Shown here piece by piece: positions 20,167-62,173 of a stretch of DNA of 64,000 nucleotides; position 1 is the first letter of the stretch; the number at the start of each line of letters is the position of its first letter. The position numbers were made by a program, and so were the translations under genes. The notes beneath the pieces were generated by a model. The model saw only the letters and a list, made by a program, of their open reading frames with translations. It searched no databases and was not told the origin of the DNA. The stretch is from Eledone cirrhosa. Taxonomy: Eukaryota. The DNA lies in contig OZ024754.1 of the NCBI GenBank assembly GCA_964016885.1, forward strand, positions 38,750,001 through 38,814,000, read 5' to 3'.

Positions 20167-23100
20167 GTTGGTACCTTCAATGTAAGCACGATGAAAGGAA
20201 GAGCAGGAGAAATCGTAGAAATGCTAGAGCGAAAGGAAATTGATGTATGCTGTGTGCAAGAGACTAGATGGAGAGGAGAGTCTGCTAGAGTCCTTGTAGG
20301 AAAAAGTCGGTGCTACAAATTTTTCTGGGTGGTAAATGACGATGGGATGGGTGGTGTAGGTATACTACTAGCTGACAAGTGGGTAGATAAAGTAATCTCA
20401 GTGTACGTAAATGCAAGAATCATTAAACTCAGACTCGTCCTGAATAAAACAATTACCTCAATAATATCAGCTTACGCACCCCAACCGGGGTTGCCAGACG
20501 AACTTAAGGATAGATTTTACGAGTCTCTAATGCACACTACTGCTCTAACAAATGACAATGACTTCCTAATCATCGCAGGAGATTTTAACGGACACGTAGG
20601 TAAACACTGCGACGGCTTCAATAGAGTCCATGGGGGCCACGGGGTTGGCACAAGAAATGAAGAAGGATTCAGACTTCTAGAATTCTGCGACGCCAATGAC
20701 ATGTCGATATGTAACACAAACTTCAAAAAGCCCGACAACCACCTGATCACCTATAGATCAGGGGAGCATTCTAGTCAGATAGATTTTATCCTCATCAGAG
20801 GACGTGACAAAAGGACGGTCGTAAACACAAAAGCCTTCCCTAGTGAGGAATGTACCTCCCAACATAGCTTAGTTGTCAGCGACCTCACAGTCAGAACTAG
20901 ACGAACCTGGAAACAGAGGCCAACCTGGAGAAGAAAGATCTGGAAGCTGAAAGACCCCTCAGCCAGTAACAGATTTAAAGATATTTTACTCAACGCCTAC
21001 GACAGTAAAGAAGAATAGATAGAGACATTCAATGTAGAAGAGCACTGGGAGTTCCTAAAAAATAACTTACTAGAGGCGACAGATGAGGTCTGTGGCTGGA
21101 GTAAGACCACAAGCAGGAGGAGAGTGACTTGGTGGTGGAACAATAAGGTAGATGAAGCAGTTAAGGCCAAGAGACAGGCATGGAAAGAATGGAAGAACGG
21201 GGAGAGCAGGGTACATTACATAGAGACCAAGAGGGAAGCTAGGCGACAAGTATACTTAGCTAGGAGGGAAGCAGAGGATAGAAAATTCAAGCATGTTTTG
21301 CAACGTGAGGACCAGAAACAGGAGGTGTTCAAGATTGCGAGGCAGTGTGTCAGAGAGAATTGTGATGTCATTGGAGAGAAGTGTATCCAGAATGATGAAG
21401 GTGAGCTTGCCCTCACAAGTGCTGAGAAGAAAGATGCATGGAAGAGTCATTATGATAGATTACTAAATGAGGAAAATGCATGGGAAGAAGAGACCCTACC
21501 CCAAGTAGACCCTATAGAGGGGCCAGCAGTACAAGTCAGCAGCAGCGTAGTAAGTAAGGCAATCAAAGATATGAAGATGGGGAAGGCAACCGGTCCATCG
21601 GGTATAGCTGCCGAGATGCTGAAGGCATCTGGGTCTGTAGGTCACACTATAACCACACGTATTGTTAACCAGGTAATACTAGAAGGTGTCATACCAAAAG
21701 ATTGGTGCAGTAGCATCATTGTCAACTGCTACAAAGGTAAAGGTGATGCACTAGATAGAGGAAACTATAGAGGTATAAAGCTGATGGACCAGGTCATGAA
21801 AGTAACAGAAAGAGTTATAGCACAGTTGATTAGGGACCGGGTGAAACTAGATGAGATGCAATTTGGGTTTGTACCAGGAAGAGGCACCACTGATGCCCTC
21901 TTCCTTGTGAGGCAGTTACAGGAAAAGTACCTAGCTAAAAGTAAGCCACTCTACCTGGCATTCGTCGATCTCGAGAAAGCCTTTGACAGAGTTCCACATG
22001 CTGTAATCTGGTGGGCTCTTAGAAAACTAGGAGTAGATGAATGGCTTGTGAAAGCTGTACAAGCCATGTATAGGGGAGCAGTCAGGAAAGTTAGGATTAG
22101 CAATGAGTATAGCGAGGAATTTAGCGTACAGGTTGGGGTCCACCAGGGCTCTGTTCTTAGCCCTCTCCTGTTCATCATAGTCCTGCAGGCAATAACGGAG
22201 GAGTTTAAGACCGGATGCCCATGGGAACTCCTGTATGCTGATGACCTCGCACTTATAGCTGAATCTATGGTAGAACTAGAGAGGAAATTCCAAACTTGGA
22301 AGCAGGGACTAGAGAGAAAGGGTCTCAAAGTCAACATGACAAAGACTAAGGTCCTTGTAAGTAGACGAGAAAACAGAACCCAGATCCCCTCAGGGAAATG
22401 GCCTTGCTCAGTATGTAGGAAAGGTGTAGGTAGGAACTCCATTCTCTGCCCCAAATGCAAACAATGGGTACACAAGAGATGTAGCGGGATCTCAGGAAGC
22501 TTAATTAAGAATGTAGGCTTCACATGCAGCAAACAGCCACAGGAAACAAGTACCACCAATCTCTGGGAGGGCTCTGTAGAGACAGTAGACAGCTTCTACT
22601 ACCTAGGTGACCGAATTAGCAGCGGAGGTGGGTGTTCAAAAAGTACAATAACTAGGGTAAGAACGGGATGGAAGAAGTTCAGGGAACTACTACCACTGCT
22701 AGCTGCAAAAGGCTTCTCCCTCAAAATGAAAGGCAGACTGTATGATTCGTGTATCCGAACAGCAATGTTACATGGTAGTGAGATCTGGGCGCTGAAGGTG
22801 GAAGACTTACGTAGATTAGAGAGAAACGAAGCCTGCATGCTCCGATGGATGTGTAATAGTAATATACGCGAACGACAAAGCATAAATGAATTGAGAGAGA
22901 GACCGAGCATAAGAATCAAATGCTGTGTGCAGGAGAGGCGGATGCGTTGGTATGGACATGTTATGCATATGAAGGATGACAGCTGCATAAAAAGGTGTAG
23001 AGCACTAGAAGTCGATGGAAACCGCGGAGTGGGGAGACCCAAGATGACCTGGGATGAGGTGATAAAAGCCGACCTTACCCAATTACACCTCTCAAAGGCA

Positions 23101-23477
23101 ATGACACACGACCGTGACCTCTGGCGTCACGCAGTAATACAGAGTACCCGACCTCCCATGGGTACAAGCTGAAGCATATAGACAATATGCCCCACACCCT
23201 CCCACTGCAAGATGGTCGTGGAGGTGCCACGGCAAAAAAGCACCCAGCCCACACTGTAAAGTGGACGTGTAGGTGCCACAGCAAAAAAGCACCCAGCACT
23301 CACTGTAAATGAGGTTGGTGTTAGAAAGGGCATCCAGCTGTAGAAATCAAGCCAAATCAGTTCCTGTATGAGCAAGGCATGGTCAGCCGACCCGACACTG
23401 CCCACAACAGGACAACCCGTCTAACCCATGCTAGCGTGGAAGAACGGACGTAAAACGGTGATGATGATGATGATGAT
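20167..23477 (+). mobile_element. RTE-clade LINE, nearly complete (AP endonuclease, RT, PHD finger), one internal nonsense codon
   Basis: APE motifs VGTFNV, VQETRW, GVGILL, SAYAPQ, AGDFNGH, SQIDFIL, SQHSLV; RT motifs YRGIKL, QFGF, FVDLEKAFD, GVHQGSVLSP, YADD. ORFs 20191-21018 and 21124-23172 share a frame and are separated only by TAG 21016-21018. The 3'UTR ends in (GAT)n. Antisense within a UBXN1-like intron. Confidence 0.95.
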
Positions 23478-28516: not shown

Positions 28517-29073
28517 CTGGGAAGAAAAAAAGAAAAGAAAATATGAACAATCACATAGGCTCACATGTACATACATGTACATACATTATATATATGTATA
28601 TATATATACACACATACACATAATATATATATATATATATACACAGACACACATAATATATATATATATATACACACAGACACACATAATATATATATAT
28701 ATATACACACAGACACACATAATATATATATATATATATATATACACACAGACACACATAATATATATATATATATACACAGACACACATAATATATATA
28801 TATATATATACACACAGACACACATAATATATATATATACACAAACACACATATATATATGTATATATAAATATATATATCTATATATATATATATCTAT
28901 ATATATAAATATATATATATATATATACGATATTAAATAAATGGAAACTATATTTATAAAACCATATTTATTTCATTATATATATTTCAGGGATATCATA
29001 TTAAAAATATGTTATGCCTTCCTCAGACAAAATACAATATAAACAGTCTTATAAATAGATAGATTCGACATAC

Positions 29074-29140
29074 CTTTCAACATCGACTTCAATTTGAAAA
29101 GTTGAATTGGTAGTAAATATACTCCAAATACTTGTTGAGT
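29074..29140 (-). CDS. Candidate upstream exon of the UBXN1-like gene (5' boundary unknown)
   Basis: Strong AAG|GTATGT donor; the phase-2 frame ...IWSIFTTNSTFQIEVDVE(R) is open back to a TAA near 29143, with no in-frame ATG. Confidence 0.35.
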
Positions 29141-29328
29141 GCTTTTATATCAGTTATAAATATTTACTCGTTGTTAACCCAACAATTTAAATAAAACTTT
29201 GCATATATATATATATATATATATATGCATATATGTGAATGAAGTAATCCCGTCGGAAAAGTCCAGGAAAAAAGAGTGCTCTATGTAGGTAACAGAGCTT
29301 AATAGTTATGTAATAAACAACATAAGGC

Positions 29329-36365: not shown

Positions 36366-37059
36366 ACAGGACCTGTTAGAAAGCATGCTTGAGAATTCTG
36401 CCCCAACTATCCTCCTAGGAATCCGATGGTTGGCTAAAAAGTTCATAGGCTGACCAAGATACCTCTCTAATGAGGTTTATTTTTCAACATAGACCCTAGA
36501 AAGAAACAAGGCAATTATTAATAAGAAGAGTTGAAATTAATGCGTACAAGATTTCACATCACCAGTATCACTCCTTCATAGTCAGCTTATGAATTTTTCA
36601 TCATATCCTTGTCTTGTAAGTGGGCCAAAAAAAAAAAAAAAATACCCACGTAAGTATGAAAGGCAAAGTTGACCTCAGTAGGATTTGAACTCAGAGTGGA
36701 AAGCTACAACATATACCAAGACATTTACTCCAATACTCTAACAACTCTGCCAATTCTTTGGCTAGAAAAATTATGTGCACAAATAATTGTTTCTACTTGG
36801 TTTCTACTTTAGGCACAAGGCCAGCAATTTGAAAGGGAGGGGGTAAGTCGATCAAATCAACCCCAGTGCATTACTGGTACTTTATTTTATCGACCCTGTA
36901 AGTATGAAAGGCAAAGCTAACCTTGGTGGGATTTGAACTCAGACTGTAAAGGGTTGTAACTCAATGCTACAAAGAATGGTATCTGATGCTCTACTGATAC
37001 TGCCAATCGACCACCCTAACATACTTAAATAATGGTATTAGATTTAGGCACAAGGTCAG

Positions 37060-37159
<100 letters not shown>

Positions 37160-37237
37160 TATATTATATTTTGAGAATAAACTCTCAGTCGTTTACAATA
37201 AATCAGCTCCAAGAAAGGGGCATTTCCAAGCAGTTAA

Positions 37238-37975
37238 TACATTAATATATATGATAAACACAAAACGTGTTTGCATTGTAACAGACAAAGTTAGCTATCA
37301 ATGAAATAAACTAATTAAAGTGAATACAATTTGTCTGTCTCGATATAAGTCAATAAAGACAAGCTTATATTGGCAAAAGCCGTGATTCCTGGACAAATCT
37401 AAATTTCAAAATCCAAACCCGCTCCGTAGATGAATTTGAATCTCGAAACCTAAATATGTTTCGCAACGATGGTACATGAATTGAAAAATAAAGAGAATCG
37501 AAATGGAATTGAAATAAAAAGTGAAATATCCAAATCTTCTGTGCTTATCAACAGGAACCCAGTAAAATTAGTACATTCCACCATCAAAAATTTTGCAGGT
37601 CTGACTACACGTGTGTGTAGCCAGGCCAAACTAGCCGTCCTGCATTCCCGGTGCTAGAAATAACAGCCGTTTATGCGGGATTAAAGATCAGCTCTACAGT
37701 TAAGGAGCAATATACTATATTATATTTTTCAATTCATGTACCATTGTTGCGAAACATATTTAGGTTTCGAGATTCAAATTCATCTACGAAGCGGGTTTGG
37801 ATTTTGAAATTTAGATTTGTCCAGGAATCACGGCTTTTGCCAATATAAGCTTGTCTTTATTGACTTATATCAAGACAGACAAATTGTATTCACTTTAATT
37901 AGTTTATTTCATTGATAGCTAACTTTGTCTGCTGCAATGTAAACACGTTTTGTGTTTATCATATATATTAATGTA
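37238..37975. mobile_element. Foldback element with 253-bp inverted repeats
   Basis: 37238-37490 is the near-perfect reverse complement of 37723-37975; 232-bp spacer; lies between (TA)n runs. Confidence 0.85.
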
Positions 37976-38357
37976 TATATATATATATATATTTCATTTA
38001 TGTTGTGTGGTTTACCAATGGGTAGACATAGTAATTCCAGTTAGTAAACCAGGATGTAATAGTAATAAAAGCACTCTACATACTGCAACTCCTCCATTGT
38101 AGATGTTTAATCCTGTCATTGGTGCAGGAAGTGAGTTAAATATTTATTTAAAACAACAAGAGGCTGCATTTATTTTTGCAAATTTAAAACTTTAAAAGGA
38201 TATTTCCTGTCTGGCCTTCTCATATATATATATATATATATATATATCATCATCATCATCATCACCGTTTTACGTCCGTTCTTCCACGCTAGCATGGGTT
38301 AGACGGGTTGTCCTGTTGTGTGCAGTGTCTGGTCGGCTGACCATGCCTTGCTCATAC

Positions 38358-38406
<49 letters not shown>

Positions 38407-38528
38407 GGAGGTGAGTTTTATTGTAGTACAATAAAGTAAATGCAGATATCGGATAAGTAGCACTCTACAGTTTGTAGGACTGGAGTATAAATAATATAAG
38501 ATCAAAAGATGGTTAAAAGAGTTCCATG

Positions 38529-38599
38529 TATTTTATTATGCGCATTTCAAAAACAAATATCATCATGCGATGACATTTGCGTTTTCGTCAGATAAAATA
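38529..38599 (-). ncRNA. Minimal type-I hammerhead ribozyme motif
   Basis: Minus strand: UAUUUUAU-CUGACGA-long stem II-GAAA-UGCGCA-UA^AUAAAAUA; all core nucleotides present. Confidence 0.75.
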
Positions 38600-38740
38600 G
38601 GGAGACATGATATGAAGGTTAAAAAACACTTGTGAATAGTGCAGTTTTAAATCAACATATGCAGTTTTAAATCAACATGATATGTTGATTTAAAACTTCA
38701 CTATTCACAAGTGTTTTTTAACCTTCATATCATGTCTCCC

Positions 38741-38811
38741 TATTTTATCTGACGAAAACGCAAATGTCATCGCATAATGATATTTGTTTTTGAAATGCGC
38801 ATAATAAAATA
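38741..38811 (+). ncRNA. Minimal type-I hammerhead ribozyme motif
   Basis: Stem I 38741-38748 with 38804-38811 (8 bp), CUGACGA 38749-38755, stem II 38756-38791 (15 positions, one mismatch), GAAA 38792-38795, palindromic stem III UGCGCA, AUA cleavage triplet ending at 38803. Confidence 0.78.
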
Positions 38812-38870
38812 CATGGAACTCTTTTAACCATCTTTTGATCTTATATTATATATATATATATATATATATA

Positions 38871-39246
38871 TCATCATCATTTTATGGCCGCTTTTCCCTG
38901 CTTGCAAGGGTGGGATGGGAACTGCTTCTGGCTTGATTTCTACAGCTGGATGCCCTTCCTAACACCAACTCATTTACAGTGTGGGCTGGGTACCTTTTTT
39001 GCTGTGGCACCTCCACGTCCACTTTACAGTGTGGGCTGGGTGCCTTTTTTGCTGTGGCACCTCCACGACCACTTTTGCAGTGGAATGATAGGGACCCCAG
39101 TCCTATCATCTCATTTCTACAGCTGAGTAAACTAGAGCAATGTGAAATAAAGTGTCTTGCTCAAGGAAACAACACATCACCCGGTCTGAGAATTGAACTC
39201 ACAACCTTTCGATTGCAAGGCCAATGCTCTAACCACTAAGCCATGT
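38871..39246 (-). mobile_element. SINE family A with a duplicated 48-bp unit
   Basis: As 4092-4426 plus one extra tttacagtgtgggctgggtg... unit. Confidence 0.82.
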
Positions 39247-39599
39247 GGGAGGTTGTCATGTCTTTGAAACTGAAAAGAGTCATCTCTCTCTACATATATA
39301 TTTCTATACACACATATATATGATGATGTGATGATGATGATCATCGTCTAACGTCCATCTTCCACGCTAGCATGGGTTGGACGGGTTTATCCCATTTGAG
39401 GCAAGATTGGTCGGGTGACCATGTTTTGCTCGTATAGCATATATATATATATTATACATACATATATATATATTATACATACATATATATATATGTGTGT
39501 GTGTGTACTGGATATATTTTATTGTGAGACAAACATGAGAAAAGTTGTCACGTCTTCAACAAGACCAAAATATTCTCCTAATCTATATAGCCTTTATTT

Positions 39600-39753
39600 G
39601 ATCATCCTCATCATTACTATCACCACCATCACCATCATTTTCACCACCATCATCACCATCATCATTACTATCACCACCATCACCATCATCATTACTATCA
39701 TTACTATCATCATCATCATCGTTACTATCACCATCATTACCATCATCATCATC
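39600..39753. repeat. (CAT/CAC/TAC)n trinucleotide tract
   Basis: Direct inspection. Confidence 0.9.
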
Positions 39754-40173
39754 GTTTAATTCATTAAAAAATTTTCTGTTTAATTGAAGGAAAGGCAAGG
39801 ACTTTATATTAGTATAGATGGCACAAGTTTAAGCACTCAATACTATTAAGTGATTGGGATATGCCATGTTGAAATTGTATATTTGCAGTGACATCTGTTT
39901 GTTATTGGAATAATTGTTTCTACTTTTGGCACAAGGGCAGCAATTACCCAGTACATTACTGGTACTTTATTTTATCGACCCTGTAAGGATGAAAAGCGAA
40001 GTTAACCTCAGTGGGATTTGAACTCAGATCGTAAAGGGACGTAACTATGCTGGAAAGCATGTCCGACCCTCTACCGATACTGCCATGCAGTGTTTATATA
40101 TGGCTTGTGACCAATTCTTTGGTGTTCAGACTCTTTGTGTTCTAAGTTCAAGTCTTGCCATGGCCTAGTTTAA

Positions 40174-40543
40174 CCCTTTTAGCATTTACATAACTTTATA
40201 TTTACTATTGTATTTTTGTGGTAAAGGCTTTACCTCACATAATTATCTCACAATAACATTTACATAACTTTATATTTACTATTGTATTTTTGCGGTAAAG
40301 GCTTTACCTCACATAATTATCTCACAATAACATTTACATAACTTTATATTTACTATTGTATTTTTGCGGTAAAGGCTTTACCTCACATAATTATCTCACA
40401 TAATATCGAATCTATGAGATTTTGATGTTATTTATTTTGAGAACAATACCTTAACGTTGGTATAAGCAGCTGGTTATGGCCAGTTTGAATAGAAAGGGGT
40501 GAGAGAATTTTGGCCGGATATGGCCTGTTTAAATGGTAAAGGG
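40174..40543. mobile_element. piggyBac-like MITE (reverse orientation) with an internal 3 x 74-bp expansion
   Basis: TTAA flanks; internal unit starts at 40183, 40257 and 40331. Confidence 0.85.
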
Positions 40544-41264: not shown

Positions 41265-43703
41265 CATCATCATCATCATCATCGTTTAACGTCCATATTC
41301 CATGCTTGCATGGATTTGGACGGGAGTTTTCCCATTTGAGGCAAGAGTGGTTGTCTTGCTCGCATAGGACTGTCTGTCAGGTTTTCTACGGCTGGATGCC
41401 CTTCCTAACACCAACCACATTTACAGTGTGGGACTGGGAGGTTTTTACCGTGTTACCTACACGGCCACATTATAGCGTGGACTGTGTGTTTTTTTGTCGT
41501 GACACCTACACGACCTCATTTGTTTCGGGCTGGATGTTGTGGTACCAACATAACTTTACATTGAAAGGGGTGGTGTGGATGGGGTGGGGGTAGTGGGACG
41601 GGGGTGTATTTTGTTAGAGGTGCCTACTGACTGTAGTAGGTTTCACTGTGTACTTAGGTAAGGCGGGTCTTCTCTATTAGTGTGTAGCGCCAAAGATCTC
41701 GGTCCAGTGACATTGTCTTGGAGAGGTGTAAGTGTGTGAGGTCGGAATTTATCAAGTCGTCCCAGGTTTTTCTGGGTCTGCCTACTCCGTGGCTACCGTC
41801 TATTTTTATTGCCCTGCACTTTTTTTATACAGCTGTCGTCTTACATGCGCATCACGTGACCATACCAACGTAGCCTTCTCTCGAGTAAACAACATCTGAT
41901 CCCTCTTATTTCTAATTTTTCCGTTAGTTCATTTATGCTTTGCCGTTCACGTATATTACTATTACACATCCAGCGGAGCATGCAAGCTTCGTTCCTCTCC
42001 AGTCTGCGTATATCCTCTGCACACAATGCCCAGGTCTCACTGCCATGCAACATTGCTGTTCGTATGCAGGCATCATACAGCCTGCCTTTCATTTTTAGGG
42101 AGAACCCTTTAGCGGCTAATAGTGGTATAAGCTCTCTGAACTTTTTCCATCCAGTTCTGACTCTAGCTACTGTACTTTCGGAGCACCCTCCCCCACTGCT
42201 GATTTTGTCACCCAGGTAACGGAAGCTGTCCACTATTTCTATAGAACCATCTGTGCAATTGAATGAGCTAGTATTCTGTGGGCACTTGCTGCTACTTATT
42301 GCACCAAAGCACCGGCCACATGTAAAATCTGTGTTCTTAGTTAGCTTACCTGTGATCCCACTACATCTTTTATGCACCCATACTTTGCATTTGGGACATA
42401 AAATGGAGTTTCTACCTACTCCTTTCCTACACACTGAGCATGGCCATTTCCCGGATGGGACCGGCGCCCTATTTTCCTTCCTACAAACTAGAACTTTAGT
42501 CTTAGACAGGTTAATTTTAAGGCCTTTTGATTCTAGGCCATGCTTCCATGTTTGGAATTTCTTCTCTAGTTCGGCCATTGATTCAGCTATGAGCGTTAGA
42601 TCATCTGCGTATAGGAGTTCCCATGGGCAGCCGGTCTTGAACTCCACTGTTATAGCCTGAAGGGCAATAATAAATAGTAGGGGGGCTAAGAACGGAGCCC
42701 TGATGAACACCAACTTTTACGCTAAACTCTTCACTATATTCGTTGTTAATTCTAACCTTGCTGACTGTTTCTTTATACATGGCTTGTATAGCTCTCACAA
42801 GCCATTCATCAACACCTAGTTTTCTAAGAGCCCACCAGATAATGGAACGGGGGACTCTGTCGAAGGCTTTCTCCAAGTCGACAAAAGCTAAGTATAGGGG
42901 TTTACTTTTAGCTAGGTACTTCTCCTGTAGTTGTCGTACAATGAAAAGAGCGTCTGTGGTACTTTTGCCTGACACAAACCCGAACTGCATTTCATCTAGA
43001 TCAATTCTCTCTCTGATTAGTTGCGCTATTACTTTTTCTGTGACCTTCATGACCTGGTCGATTAATTTAATGCCTCTTTAGTTACTCCTATCTAGGGCAT
43101 CTCCTTTACCCTTGTAGCAGTTAATGATGATGCTGCTACGCCAGTCCTTCGGAACAACCCCATTCTGTATGACTTGGTTTACTATCTGGGTGACCATGGT
43201 GTGTCCCACCGTTCCAGAAGCTTTCAGCATTTCAGCAACTATTTCCGAAGGCCCAGCCGCCTTACCCGTCTTCATATCTTTGATTGCCTTACTTATTATA
43301 CTACCTTCGACTAACACTGCTGGTCCCTCTATTGGGTCAATGTGGGGGAGACTGTCTTTCTCCCATTTATTCTCCTCATTTAGTAGCCTTTCGTAGTGAC
43401 ACTTCCAAGCTACCTTCTTATCAGCGTCAGTGATGGCAAGTACACCATCATCATTAAGTACACACTTCTCCCCGACAATATCACGGTTTTCCTTGACACA
43501 TTGCCTAGCAATCCTGAACACCTCACGTTTTTGGTCCTCGCATTGTAGAACATGCTTGAACTTTCTTTCCTCTGCTTCCCTTCTTGCGAAGTACATTTGT
43601 CTCCTAGCTTCCCTCCTGGCCACTTGATAGTCTTCTCTACTTCCCCCATCCCGCCATACTTTCCAAGCCTGCTTTTTGGCCTTAATTGACTCCTCCACCT
43701 TAC
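41265..43703 (-). mobile_element. RTE-clade LINE, 5'-truncated and disrupted, with an intact PHD finger
   Basis: Three ORF pieces (43078-43698, 42601-43050, 41841-42713) colinear with the 20167 element; FVDLEKAFD and YADD motifs; stops or frameshifts near 43078, 42700 and 41841; distinct 3'UTR ending in (GAT)n. Confidence 0.93.
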
Positions 43704-43855
43704 TGTTATATATATATGTATATATATATGTAAGAGGTGAGTTTTATTGTAGTACAATAAAGCAATGCAGATATCGGATAAGTAACACTCTACAGTTTGT
43801 AGGACTGGAGTATAAATAATATATAAGATCAAAAGATGGTTAAAAGAGTTCCATG

Positions 43856-43926
43856 TATTTTATTATGCGCATTTCAAAAACAAATATCATCATGCAATAA
43901 CATTTGCGTTTTCGTCAGATAAAATA
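43856..43926 (-). ncRNA. Minimal type-I hammerhead ribozyme motif (third copy)
   Basis: Same 71-nt motif with an intact core; differences are confined to stem II. Confidence 0.72.
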
Positions 43927-43999
43927 GGGAGACATGATATGAAGGTTAAAACACACTTGTGAATAGTGCAGTTTTAAATCAACATATCATATATATATA

Positions 44000-48280: not shown

Positions 48281-48636
48281 GATGGACACACACACATATA
48301 TATATGTGTGTGTGTGTGTGTGAGAGTGTTTTACGTACGTTTGTCCGTGTTTACCTTTATTGATTGAAATATAAGTACTGGGGTTGATATGATTGATTAA
48401 ATTCCTTGCACATAATGCCCCAGCGTGACCGCAGACTAATGATTATAACCAATAAAAGAATAACCTTGCTTTGGGTCATAATGGTTTGTTTTTAATTGGC
48501 TAAAGGTGTGTGTATAGGTGTATGTGTATATATATATATATATACATGTGTGTATGTATGCAGATGTCAAGGACAAGTGGCTGTTAAAATGTTATCCTAT
48601 CGACCTTAGCTGCGCAAAACAGGGGAGACTATCGCT

Positions 48637-49429
48637 ATGGCGCTGAGCTCTTACTACAATCGTTTAGTAATTTGGTCAAAAGAGACAATACCTCGTTACT
48701 ATCAAGCAAGCACTACACACTGGAGACATCAACAACAACAACATCAGCAGCAGCTTCGCCGGGTTTCTTTTCTATCAGGAGCAAATATTCCAACGTCATT
48801 CCCGTTGTACCTTATACATTGTTGTTCTATTCGAGACCAGCACCTGCTTGCTGCTGTTGTTGTTAGAAACAATACATTTAATCACGATCAACCACTACTG
48901 TCGACACCTCTCGCTACTAAAGACACTAAAAATTTGTTATGTCATAAATTGTTGGTCGGGTTTAGTAGACAAGCTGTGACTGTAGTAAACAATAGGTATT
49001 TCTTGAAGTGGTCAATTTTAAGCTTCTATTGTATTCTTTCTGCTTTACCAGTAATAGTCGGCGGTCGAGGTAGTGTATTTACCAGAGGTGGTTGTGTTGG
49101 TAGTGTAAAACGTTGTAAGAACGAAGCCAACATGTCGGAGACTTCGTCGTCAAAGACAGCCAGCCCCGCTAATAACTCAACTCCTCTGATTAAACTCAGT
49201 AGTAATAATGATAGCGATATGGTCGACTCAACAGTCGCAGTAGATGACAGTCTCCATTCGGGTAACAATAACTCCTGCAAGAAGAAGAAAAGTACCGCCG
49301 GCGAAGATGTGCAGCAGCTTTGTGTGACCAGCCCTGATGATGATGGTGGTGCCACTACGGCTGGATATGGTAACGACCACAACAACGACAAGACGATGGC
49401 GGGAAACCAGTTCCCTTCCGACAAGTCCA
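48637..49429 (+). CDS. MACROD1/2-like gene, probable first coding exon (ATG 48637 or 49132)
   Basis: 265-codon non-repetitive ORF in CpG-retaining sequence. The phase-1 donor TCCA|GTTAAG fits the phase-1 exon chain leading to the macrodomain. Linkage is inferred and the donor is weak. Confidence 0.62.
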
Positions 49430-52104
49430 GTTAAGTGGTTTAGGGCTTTTTCCTTTATCTCTCTTCATATCCCCATACCCACTTTCGTGCAACTACTACT
49501 TACTTTTTTCAACCAATATTGCCGGACTAGATACATATATATCTACACGTAGTCTTTTCTTCTGTGTTATTATTCCCACAAGTAAACATTAGGGAAAGCT
49601 TACGTCTCCTTGTTTTCTAATACAACCATGGTTCTGGTTTATAGAATTCATTCAACTGTAACGGCTTCGTTCGTGTCACAATGTATTGTTTATATAGACC
49701 GAAATATTTCGGAATAATACATACATATATAAGTAATAAATACATCAAGGTTGTTATTTTTCTTTAAGTCAACCTTGTTTAAACAAGCCTGTAGTCATAA
49801 GCACCCCAGTCGTAAACATCCTATCGTTTAGTGGGTCGAGTTTCATTATTTAAAATACTCTTCTTTTATTTCAGACGAAGGGAGTAATTTAAGGGAGATT
49901 TGCCAACTGCGTTAAGATTAACAACGCTAATGTCTACGTATTTTATTTAAGATGAATAGCCCGGTCTTGTTGATTTAGATATCAAATATAACTTTACCAC
50001 TAATTTAAGTAATTTTCTGTTCATATGCATATGAAGGTGCATTTCGAGGTGTAATTAGAGACACCCTGCTAAACTTTATACAAGTATCCGAGCATATTTT
50101 AAACATGGTATTTCCTGCATGCAGGCAAACAACTAAACTGTTTGTTTGAAACTTTAATATATTTTTTGTATATAATATATTCTGAAAGAAGTTTTATTTT
50201 TCTACTGCAAAAATATAAAATCTAATTTGTGTATTTTAAATTCAAATTCAATTAAATCTAATTTGTACCCGCCCATTAACTTAAGATATATTTTTGTTTA
50301 TGTCCGTTTCTTCGGGTTAAGATATCCATTTTCTCTATCAAATAGTAGTTTGGAATATATTTATCTAGATATGTTTTATAAATAGGGTATATCTCTATTT
50401 AAATATTTATTTATATAAATTTGTTCAACGATCTTCTTTACCTACATTTTAAATTTGTATTTTATCAATTATTTAATTAAAAACCATGGTTGTGATGTTT
50501 AACCCAAGGCAGCTCTGATCAAACAAACCTATTGTCAAAGGTCATTTTAGCTGTGACTACCTTATATTTTACCAGATATAGTATATCTGGAACTATATGA
50601 GCTAATATGTCCTACTAGATAAAAATATGGTGCGGTTTGCTATGAAGGAGGGAAAATGTGACTGCTATTTCTAGCACATCGAGCGATCACATAGACTCTC
50701 CTCTCTTGTTTGAAACAAAATCACGTAGTTAATATTATTGTACATCTAAAACTGTTTCGGCTACCCGTATTGATTATATTTAAGATAGCCATTGGTTTTC
50801 GTTTTTTTTAAAAATCTATATATTTTAAAATGTTTACAGGAAAAAAAAAAAAAATATATATATATATATCTTATAAGGTTTCAATAGATATAAGGAACTT
50901 CAGTAGAGAGAGAGTGTGTGTGTATATATATTACAGTTTCTCTATAAGGTTATACTGCTATCTTATATTTGTTGCCACGACATTAGCTACAATACATCGT
51001 AACTACGTATTGCTTTCTGTTTATTTATTCATAGTATTAAAATTTCATGACACACTACGCATTAAAAAAAAAAGAATCTCCGATGCAGCAAAGGAAATTT
51101 GCCAAATTACTGAAGAGAGAGCGAGAGAGTGTGTGTGTCTGTGTGTATGTCAAATCAATGAAGATGCGGGAAATGCACGTGTCGGCATACTTACTAATTT
51201 TATTTATCAAAAGATCTTTATCATTATAAAGAAGCTACAAGGAATGTATTTTTAATGATGACCATAAAGATGTCGTTGTGATTGTTTTAGACAGTTTAGT
51301 ATGACCAGATCCGGATTAAAGAAACTAGTGTTCTTAAGCTAGAGAACGTTTGGAGTCACCAGCAACTGCTAGCGAGAAACTAAATAAAAATTAAAAGTAC
51401 ATGAATGTAGGCCTGTACAGAGCGATGCTAATATTTCAGCATCGATCCAAAAGATGTGATACCCCCCTACCAAAAAGAAAAAAAGAAATGTATTTAATAA
51501 TAGTTATGATAGTCTACCTATACAAACCTGTTAACATCAAGAGACGATAGGCAGATATATTTTAAAGTGATTTCTAAATTCCCTAGGTAACTTAGTGAAA
51601 CAAAAAATTAAGCTAACCAAGGTTTCTGAAAATATAATATCTTATCTAGACATGGCACCATATTGTCATTATTTTTTAATAACATTCAAATACTGCAGGG
51701 CTGGAATTTACCATTCTTTATCGCCGGGAGTTGACAATACATAAATATTTGTTTACTCCTAGGTCCTAATCACTGTTTGACATCTATTTTCCATGTTAGA
51801 ATGTGGTTTTTCGATGGATTGTCACGTACTGAGGCTTGACTGCTCAAGTGACCAGTCTTGCTCATATGTTCCGTTTTGGGATTGGTTTCTATAGCTGGAT
51901 GCTCTTCCTAACACCAACCACTTTACAGCATGTACTGGGTGCTTTTTAAGATGGCACTAGCACTACCGACTAACAGGGCAAACACCATGCTTTTTATCGT
52001 GTCACCAGCCCTATGCCTTACAATGCAAACTGGATGCTTTTTATCGTGACACCAGTTCTACCACTTTACAGGGTGTACTGGTTGCATATTGTCACAACAC
52101 CATC

Positions 52105-61647: not shown

Positions 61648-61767
61648 CATATTCTGTGAATCACAACATCAATAAAAGGATCTCGTTGCACAAAGGTGAC
61701 ATCACTAAGTTACAGGTAGATGTCATTGTTAATGCTGCCAACTCTTCACTGCTTGGTGGTGGAGGAG
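61648..61767 (+). CDS. MACROD2: MACROD1/2-like ADP-ribose glycohydrolase exon, start of macrodomain (gene continues beyond the window)
   Basis: ttttccAG acceptor and GTGAGT donor; [33 protein letters not shown] carries the GDIT, NAAN and GGGG MacroD-class motifs. MACROD1 versus MACROD2 cannot be resolved. Confidence 0.9.
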
Positions 61768-61835
61768 GTGAGTTGACAGCTTGTTTTATTGTGTTAGAGA
61801 GAGAGACCTATAATGTCTTGGAGTATTGGCTAGAC

Positions 61836-62173
61836 CAGGGGTTCTCAACCTGGTCCAGGTGGACCACTAGTGGTCCACAGGAAAATTCAGGTGGTCCACA
61901 GAAAATGTTCAATAGCAAATTCTTTTTTGATCCATGCATTTGACTTAAAGTGCTGTTCTTATTCTTTGCATAAGTACGACTTCAGCTGTTTATTTGCGTA
62001 GATTTTTAGGCACTGCGACATGATAATAGCATTTTCTAATTCATTGAAAAAAAAAACATCTACTGATGCTTATAAGTAGCAGTTCTATTACAAGATTTAA
62101 AAGTTTAGGTGGTCCACAGGAAAAAATTACTTATTTTGGTGGTCCACAGCGAAAAAAAGGTTGAGAACCCCTG
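61836..62173. mobile_element. hAT (Charlie-like) MITE
   Basis: TIRs CAGGGGTTCTCAACCT...AGGTTGAGAACCCCTG, 8-bp TSD ggctagac/ggctagag, subterminal gtggtccacag repeats. Confidence 0.88.

Follow-up and report, generated by a model that had tools for sequence, protein, structure and literature searches.

A hammerhead-bearing palindrome in Eledone cirrhosa as a probable head-to-head insertion of two Penelope-like terminal repeats

The palindrome at positions 38404-38845 of the window, by which we mean the whole stretch of 64,000 nucleotides analysed, is best read as a short insertion into a TA microsatellite, consisting of two head-to-head terminal repeats (pLTRs) of an abundant Penelope-like element (PLE) and likely made by twin priming on one capped, uncut RNA (probability about 0.8). 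The twin-priming and cap steps, taken by themselves, are probable at a somewhat lower level. Each arm is almost certainly the pLTR of an autonomous PLE of the Hydra clade. The locus itself is ordinary debris and its value lies in the statistics of the family, which give base-level predictions on PLE insertion: a start site, two priming sites and a cap-derived G.

The inverted arms occupy 38486-38660 and 38680-38854. They measure 175 nt each and are 98% complementary, with three mismatches, one at the edge between the tail and (TA)n and the other two internal; the 169-bp inverted arms of the first-pass annotation are thus confirmed. The palindrome that it placed at 38491..38849 is real, but the element spans 38404-38845, between (TA)n tracts, and its start moves from 38491 to 38404, since a tail of 88 nt without a mirror copy extends the left arm. 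Read from left to right, this tail leads into the left arm, and the right arm closes the insertion. Between the two arms, the centre of the palindrome consists of an 18-nt copy of the arm's 5′ end plus one extra G. Arms are numbered with the A at 38680 as +1, and the ribozyme cut falls after +124. The pLTR sequence at +1 is ATATGTTGA, found at window positions 38680 (right arm) and 38660 (left arm). The features of the locus, with a third family copy, are as follows.

38360..38403, no strand: (TA)n target, left flank
38404..38491, minus strand: tail of 88 nt ending at 3′ site type B; the same sequence forms the leader between pLTR and ORF start in tandem units
38492..38660, minus strand: left arm, a pLTR starting at the family 5′ hotspot, with +1 at 38660
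38529..38599, minus strand: type-I hammerhead motif with the majority family sequence; predicted cut after 38537
38661..38678, minus strand: junction duplicate of the first bases of the pLTR, +3 to +20
38679..38679, plus strand: G directly before +1, absent from the element's own upstream sequence
38680..38845, plus strand: right arm, a tail-less pLTR from +1 to 3′ end type A
38741..38811, plus strand: type-I hammerhead motif; predicted cut after 38803; a change at 38776 costs stem II one pair
38846..38871, no strand: (TA)n target, right flank
43728..43987, minus strand: third family copy in the window, a solo pLTR followed by its tail, with (TA)n tracts on both sides and G before +1

The junction duplicate at 38661..38678 is likely a re-priming or repair scar, and comparable junction repeats are present in copies L028, L224 and L225.

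Family counts were obtained by exact string match throughout the genome (3.0 Gb). The core 24-mer has 2,075 exact matches and the 23-mer just 3′ of the cut has 8,439, with none for the reversed controls, and the best 40 candidate copies are 97-100% identical to the arm. Longer copies run upstream into a pyrimidine-rich 3′UTR and then into an ORF with RT and putative endonuclease, and copies holding the ORF start (tandem junctions) display the pLTR, the tail, about 85 nt of leader and the ATG. The order of the full unit is pLTR-tail-leader-ORF-3′UTR-pLTR. Copy L149 is a 3.71-kb unit in which direct pLTRs flank an ORF of 798 aa; three further open frames encode 799 aa each. An intron in the leader was sought in L149, where no GTRAG-type donor was found. 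The family is young. Its copies number in the thousands and have sharp ends, and open ORFs persist. The first-pass annotation had proposed a microsatellite-associated PLE terminus and a search for links between the arm and PLE ORFs. Both proposals held: ORFs with RT and putative endonuclease are found upstream of the arm, tandem junctions place the arm ahead of the ATG, and the arm is the pLTR of this coding unit, which has a (TA)n target. The label of a non-coding retroelement terminus is incomplete, as this is no stand-alone non-coding element but an inverted, truncated piece inserted by an autonomous element that codes for protein.

The protein contains YRDD in all four open 798-799-aa frames compared, and the top Foldseek match of the predicted structure (pLDDT 62) is the TERT 3du5_A (E 7e-9). 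Searches of the family ORFs against Pfam found neither an RT nor a GIY-YIG domain, one relative giving a weak RVT_1 match below the cut-off, and the family protein had no match among PDB sequences. A putative C-terminal endonuclease is suggested by motif (YECKVI...TYFG, with downstream R, H, E and N kept in relatives), without a profile match. Three of the four full ORFs contain DKT, and L150 has NKT. CxCX5C and CxH occur in 4/4 and CxxC in 3/4; there is no C pair between the two core strands and CCHH is absent. An N-terminal RLRWI, shared by 4/4, is aligned where relatives have RWK, and the closest relatives of the protein are 30-48% identical. Residues about 590-655 of the L149 ORF form an Asn-rich insert absent from eight relatives; N-rich inserts have been reported in rotifer PLEs (PMC3846280). 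Other PLE-type ORFs adjoin the family copies L040 and L046, and the linker of the former is CX4CXXC, as in Neptune.

The ends of the insertions were mapped in a census of the first 100 matches of the 23-mer on contig 1 and 33 adjoining arms, which makes 133 arms over 66.5 Mb of one contig. The 5′ end could be placed in 99 arms, a count that excludes 23 arms that were longer or cut at an edge; of these 99, 37 begin between -4 and +5, at a hotspot located 124 nt upstream of the cut. Of the 68 arms reaching +5, 37 stop there. The first-pass annotation had expected 5′ ends at the cut site; such ends are not enriched among genomic copies (3/99 against 2.0 expected, p=0.34), and cleavage was rejected as their source. 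Judging from these genomic ends, the ribozyme cut does not set the ends of family insertions. ATAT microhomology was likewise rejected as the cause of the hotspot, other ATAT/TATA sites gathering only 0-2 breaks.

Across the genome, +1 is preceded by G in 2,111 copies, by T in 1,581 and by A in 570, with native read-through in 4,356, a tally in which non-native C was counted only via the 747 perfect palindromes described below. None of 30 G copies has the native upstream sequence, and a subfamily with a native G before +1 was thus rejected as the source; one such variant exists (L017). The G:A ratio is 3.7 at +1 versus 0.65 (15:23) at other breaks (p 2e-7). In the 133-arm sample alone, the difference is not significant (G in 8/18 at +1 versus 15/51 non-C bases elsewhere, p=0.19). 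A (TA)n-A-G junction pattern has 22 matches, a count that does not enter this comparison. The palindrome locus and the solo copy at 43728-43987 both carry the G, and that at 38679 is a candidate copy of the RNA cap. In L1 and SVA, untemplated G at full-length 5′ ends has been attributed to cap copying (PMC3287187). We infer that +1 would be a capped transcription start.

The long unstructured pyrimidine tract just upstream of +1 could also fit a hotspot that is a stall of the RT or a break of the RNA at the pyrimidine-rich edge of the 3′UTR, the G then coming from terminal transferase activity. We regard this explanation as conceivable but doubtful. G is fairly common at other breaks too (15/53), but the G:A ratio is 3.7 at +1 against 0.65 elsewhere, and the break is sharp, with 30 of the 99 starts at 0/+1. 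Furthermore, 31/68 arms read through the hotspot, and PLE start sites have been reported to lie in the pLTR (PMC8557442).

At the other end, the 133 arms terminate at two fixed sites about 90 nt apart: 65 arms at A (+168 to +178) and 57 at B (+258 to +263), with seven ending elsewhere and four continuing into the ORF. Inverted pairs nearly always combine one end of each type. Abutting head-to-head pairs are A/B in 29 of 36 cases and A/A in one, six having an unclassed arm; for pairs up to 6 kb, 34 are A/B versus 2 of the same type (p 1e-8). The tail-less A arm extends further 5′ in 19 of the 29 A/B pairs and the B arm in five, with five ties. Six tailed (B) arms start at +147 or later and are hardly more than a tail. 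Perfect palindromic junctions number 747 genome-wide, with 0 for the reversed controls. Palindrome centres and arm lengths vary from locus to locus, and each palindrome was therefore built at insertion. Paired arms differ by a median of 1.2% versus 5.7% between loci (nine pairs of adequate length), which fits one template but equally gene conversion.

Together, the A/B pairing, the shared 5′ stop and the non-native G at +1 suggest twin priming on one capped, uncleaved RNA. In the proposed process, the element RNA would be capped, would start at +1 and would not have been cut by its own ribozyme. The enzyme, probably as a dimer, would nick both (TA)n strands. One cDNA would start at the tail end and the other at the TA-rich site 90 nt upstream, both running towards the cap, which the RT would read as an extra G; the cDNA ends would then be joined by short homologies such as ATAT. 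In L1, twin priming creates inversions when both target strands serve as primers. The model makes an extra demand where the two arms share +1 to +168, which is the case at the palindrome locus: one cDNA would have to displace the other, or two RNAs would be needed.

A second origin for such pairs is fold-back self-priming, proposed for rotifer PLEs (PMC3846280), in which the strand made first, or an antisense template, would turn back on itself at the 5′ palindrome and serve as its own primer and template. The near-identity of paired arms and the perfect palindromic junctions are in its favour, although such junctions are also expected from two cDNA ends annealing via ATAT. A fold-back arm cannot contain sequence missing from the first arm. 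Fold-back could make 10 of the 29 pairs and the palindrome locus, in which the tailed arm spans the whole tail-less arm; in the other 19/29, each arm has sequence that the other lacks, which fits priming from both target strands at two sites and not fold-back. The six tailed arms beginning at +147 or later also argue against it. We therefore consider fold-back improbable for the family, and it is unlikely to be the sole route.

Whether the short copies in general record PLE insertion, with one capped uncut RNA, two fixed internal sites, two RT units and a cap G, is to us an evenly balanced question. If they do, head-to-head repeats, one-sided tails and solo pLTRs would be explained in one step, the transcription start would be placed from DNA alone, and the role of the ribozyme would shift away from making template ends. 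If the promoter is internal, such palindromes would also drive transcription in both directions, and the two resulting ribozyme RNAs, identical in sequence, could pair with each other by way of stem III.

Another inverted repeat lies nearby, at 37165-37985, with 254-nt arms (98%) and extra sequence on one side, in (TA)n. It has 1,625 candidates genome-wide with variable inverted lengths. The type-I descriptor found no hammerhead in it, and no ORF was tied to the repeat. It is probably another PLE family with the same layout as the palindrome at 38404-38845.

The hammerhead motifs reported for each strand were found as described, at 38741-38811 (+) and 38529-38599 (-). The order is an 8-bp stem I, CUGACGA, stem II, GAAA, UGCGCA and UA, and stem II spans 15 positions, the fourth of which is a C.U mismatch. 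One correction concerns the right arm, where a G-to-A change at 38776 unpairs stem II next to its loop. A type-I descriptor has four matches in the window, three of the palindrome family and one of a sister family, versus a mean of 0.04 over 100 shuffles. A scan of 37000-40500 with Rfam gave 42 matches at E<=5, none of them to a hammerhead family, and the folding z-scores of the isolated motifs are modest (-0.9 to -2.6, versus shuffles).

In 62 arms picked by a marker outside the core, the core varies by 1.2% on average (11 positions) versus 5.3% in the flanks. Variation of at least 10% is seen at 0/11 core positions versus 12/75 flank positions; only N7 is commonly variable. Covariation was assessed in 16 related motifs, representing 16 of 23 clusters after seven near-duplicates or decayed copies were left out, and retrieved with a pattern that demanded the core together with portions of stems I and III and left stem II free. 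In stem II, 8/9 pairs have changed on both sides. In the motif alignment, 95% of cells are paired, and the covariation score is reached by 0/500 shuffles, bearing in mind that related sequences may outscore shuffles without structure. Stem I shows one-sided changes only and stem III remains self-complementary. Core conservation and stem covariation across copies, which the first-pass annotation had named, alongside cleavage, as a check on its reading, are both present. Since the related ribozymes covary, the fold appears to be under selection, and on this comparative evidence the hammerhead is a selected part of the pLTR.

The annotation had also anticipated a type-I hammerhead with a stem III suited to dimers, and the predictions agree: stem III is palindromic, its probability in the monomer is 0.002, and two copies are predicted to form an 8-bp self-duplex of -10.5 kcal/mol. 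The same dimer-type behaviour of stem III has been described for metazoan type-I hammerheads (PMC4209133). Cleavage would be expected to proceed in dimers, with the palindromic stem III joining the two ribozyme copies.

The sister-family hammerhead lies at about 28930-29190 (-), with the motif near 28970-29035, between (TA)n tracts, and its stem III palindrome is AUAUAUAU. In sister hammerheads (L009, L043, L060, L062, L074, L088, L120, L123 and others), stem II consists of three pairs, a mismatch and a longer helix. The mismatch is mostly C plus a pyrimidine, and a position-4 mismatch occurs in 22/23 clusters. Other hammerhead types are present, with CTAG, TGCA, CCACTGG or CCCAGGG as stem III.

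At the palindrome, a competition between hairpin and ribozyme had been envisaged for read-through transcripts, and the computed energies leave little room for one. The hairpin beats the ribozyme-forced fold by 93.5 (+) and 96.5 (-) kcal/mol in the read-through RNA. With the arms head-to-head, this RNA carries the antisense arm first; given this order and the favoured hairpin, the ribozyme would be locked. It is likely a passenger at this locus, inactive in the read-through RNA according to these models.

These energies also bear on the idea of a non-autonomous palindrome that propagates itself, in the manner of a retrozyme or a MITE, and uses its two ribozymes and its hairpin as a switch. Short palindromes are indeed many, with nine close pairs among the first 100 core matches, but this idea is very improbable: centres and arm lengths differ between loci, the two ribozymes sit on opposite strands and cannot share one RNA, and the hairpin wins by more than 90 kcal/mol. 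Nor is the locus a retrozyme: it is an inverted pair, and no tandem arrays of the unit were seen in the 133-arm census. Chimeric reads can produce near-perfect palindromes, but an assembly artefact from a fold-back read is hardly credible here, as the arms differ at two internal bases, their ends differ, the genome-wide A/B rule is obeyed, and contigs of the public runs X1-X3, from one sample, contain free ends at these same two 3′ sites, each running into (TA)n.

Elsewhere in the window, LINE-type copies with endonuclease/RT frames, which we take to be RTE-like, are located at 20167-23172 (+) and 41841-43743 (-), the second abutting the solo pLTR at 43728. Possible host exons lie at 48610-49434 (+) and about 61740-61895 (+). 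The latter presumably resembles a macro domain, for which no Pfam match was found there.

Head-to-head pLTRs, a one-sided tail and a hammerhead on each strand are known from published PLE anatomy. The mechanism by which PLEs generate inverted repeats and tails is presented as an open question, as is the function of their hammerheads (PMC8557442, PMC11167929). In open-access text we found no report of a cap-derived G at PLE junctions or of A/B pairing counts.

The closest comparison is the Hydra clade of EN+ PLEs, such as Penelope-13_HM and Hydra-1_Obim (Craig et al. 2021, PMC8557442). The family shares with it the CxCX5C linker, CxxC, CxH, the absence of CCHH, and DKT, which in place of DKG is described as a mark of this clade (PMC8557442); the putative C-terminal endonuclease of the family, assigned by motifs, would agree with that of the clade. 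Also shared are (TA)n targets and a canonical hammerhead near the 3′ end with a palindromic stem III. The family differs by RWI instead of RWK, by some 65 additional, Asn-rich residues ahead of the linker, and by a tail of 88 nt compared with the published 30-40 nt of PLEs. Its unit is 3.7 kb, whereas Hydra units are generally <3 kb, a tendency rather than a strict criterion (PMC8557442). Compared by eye with the published octopus family Hydra-1_Obim, both the hammerhead and the protein are visibly different. The placement rests on motifs and on a by-eye match to the published Hydra alignment.

The layout of the palindrome is identical to that published for PLEs, with head-to-head pLTRs, a junction palindrome and a tail on one arm. 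Insertions with an inverted pLTR and a one-sided tail are described by Arkhipova et al. 2013 (PMC3846280) and in Fig. 2 of Craig 2021. Penelope-13_HM offers an inverted 5′-truncated copy with a hammerhead on both strands (PMC8557442 supplement), and Cervera and De la Pena 2014 (PMC4209133) noted minimal hammerheads in pairs, one on each strand, at a spacing of 100-700 bp. The cited descriptions are qualitative; for the present family, counts are given of how often A pairs with B, of 5′ ends at the single base and of the extra G.

Non-LTR retrozymes also have a non-coding, pLTR-derived type-I hammerhead, but form head-to-tail tandem repeats (bioRxiv 10.64898/2026.07.22.740005) in contrast to the one inverted pair found here. 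The likeness to L1 lies in inversion by priming on both target strands and in the untemplated 5′ G (PMC3287187 for the G). However, L1 starts at the poly(A) end and its second priming site is variable; in the family, both sites are fixed and internal, and the arms often overlap. The proposed model comes nearest to Poseidon PAc of Anolis, for which two internal RT start sites defining the tail and AT-rich targets are reported (Frangieh et al. 2024, PMC11167929). PAc belongs to another clade and its hammerhead overlaps the ORF start, whereas that of the family ends about 210 nt before the ATG. In vitro, PAc cut and extended both strands on an uncleaved RNA template, ribozyme cutting being dispensable (PMC11167929); two internal starts, an AT-rich target, both strands and an uncleaved RNA are likewise the elements of the twin priming that we propose.
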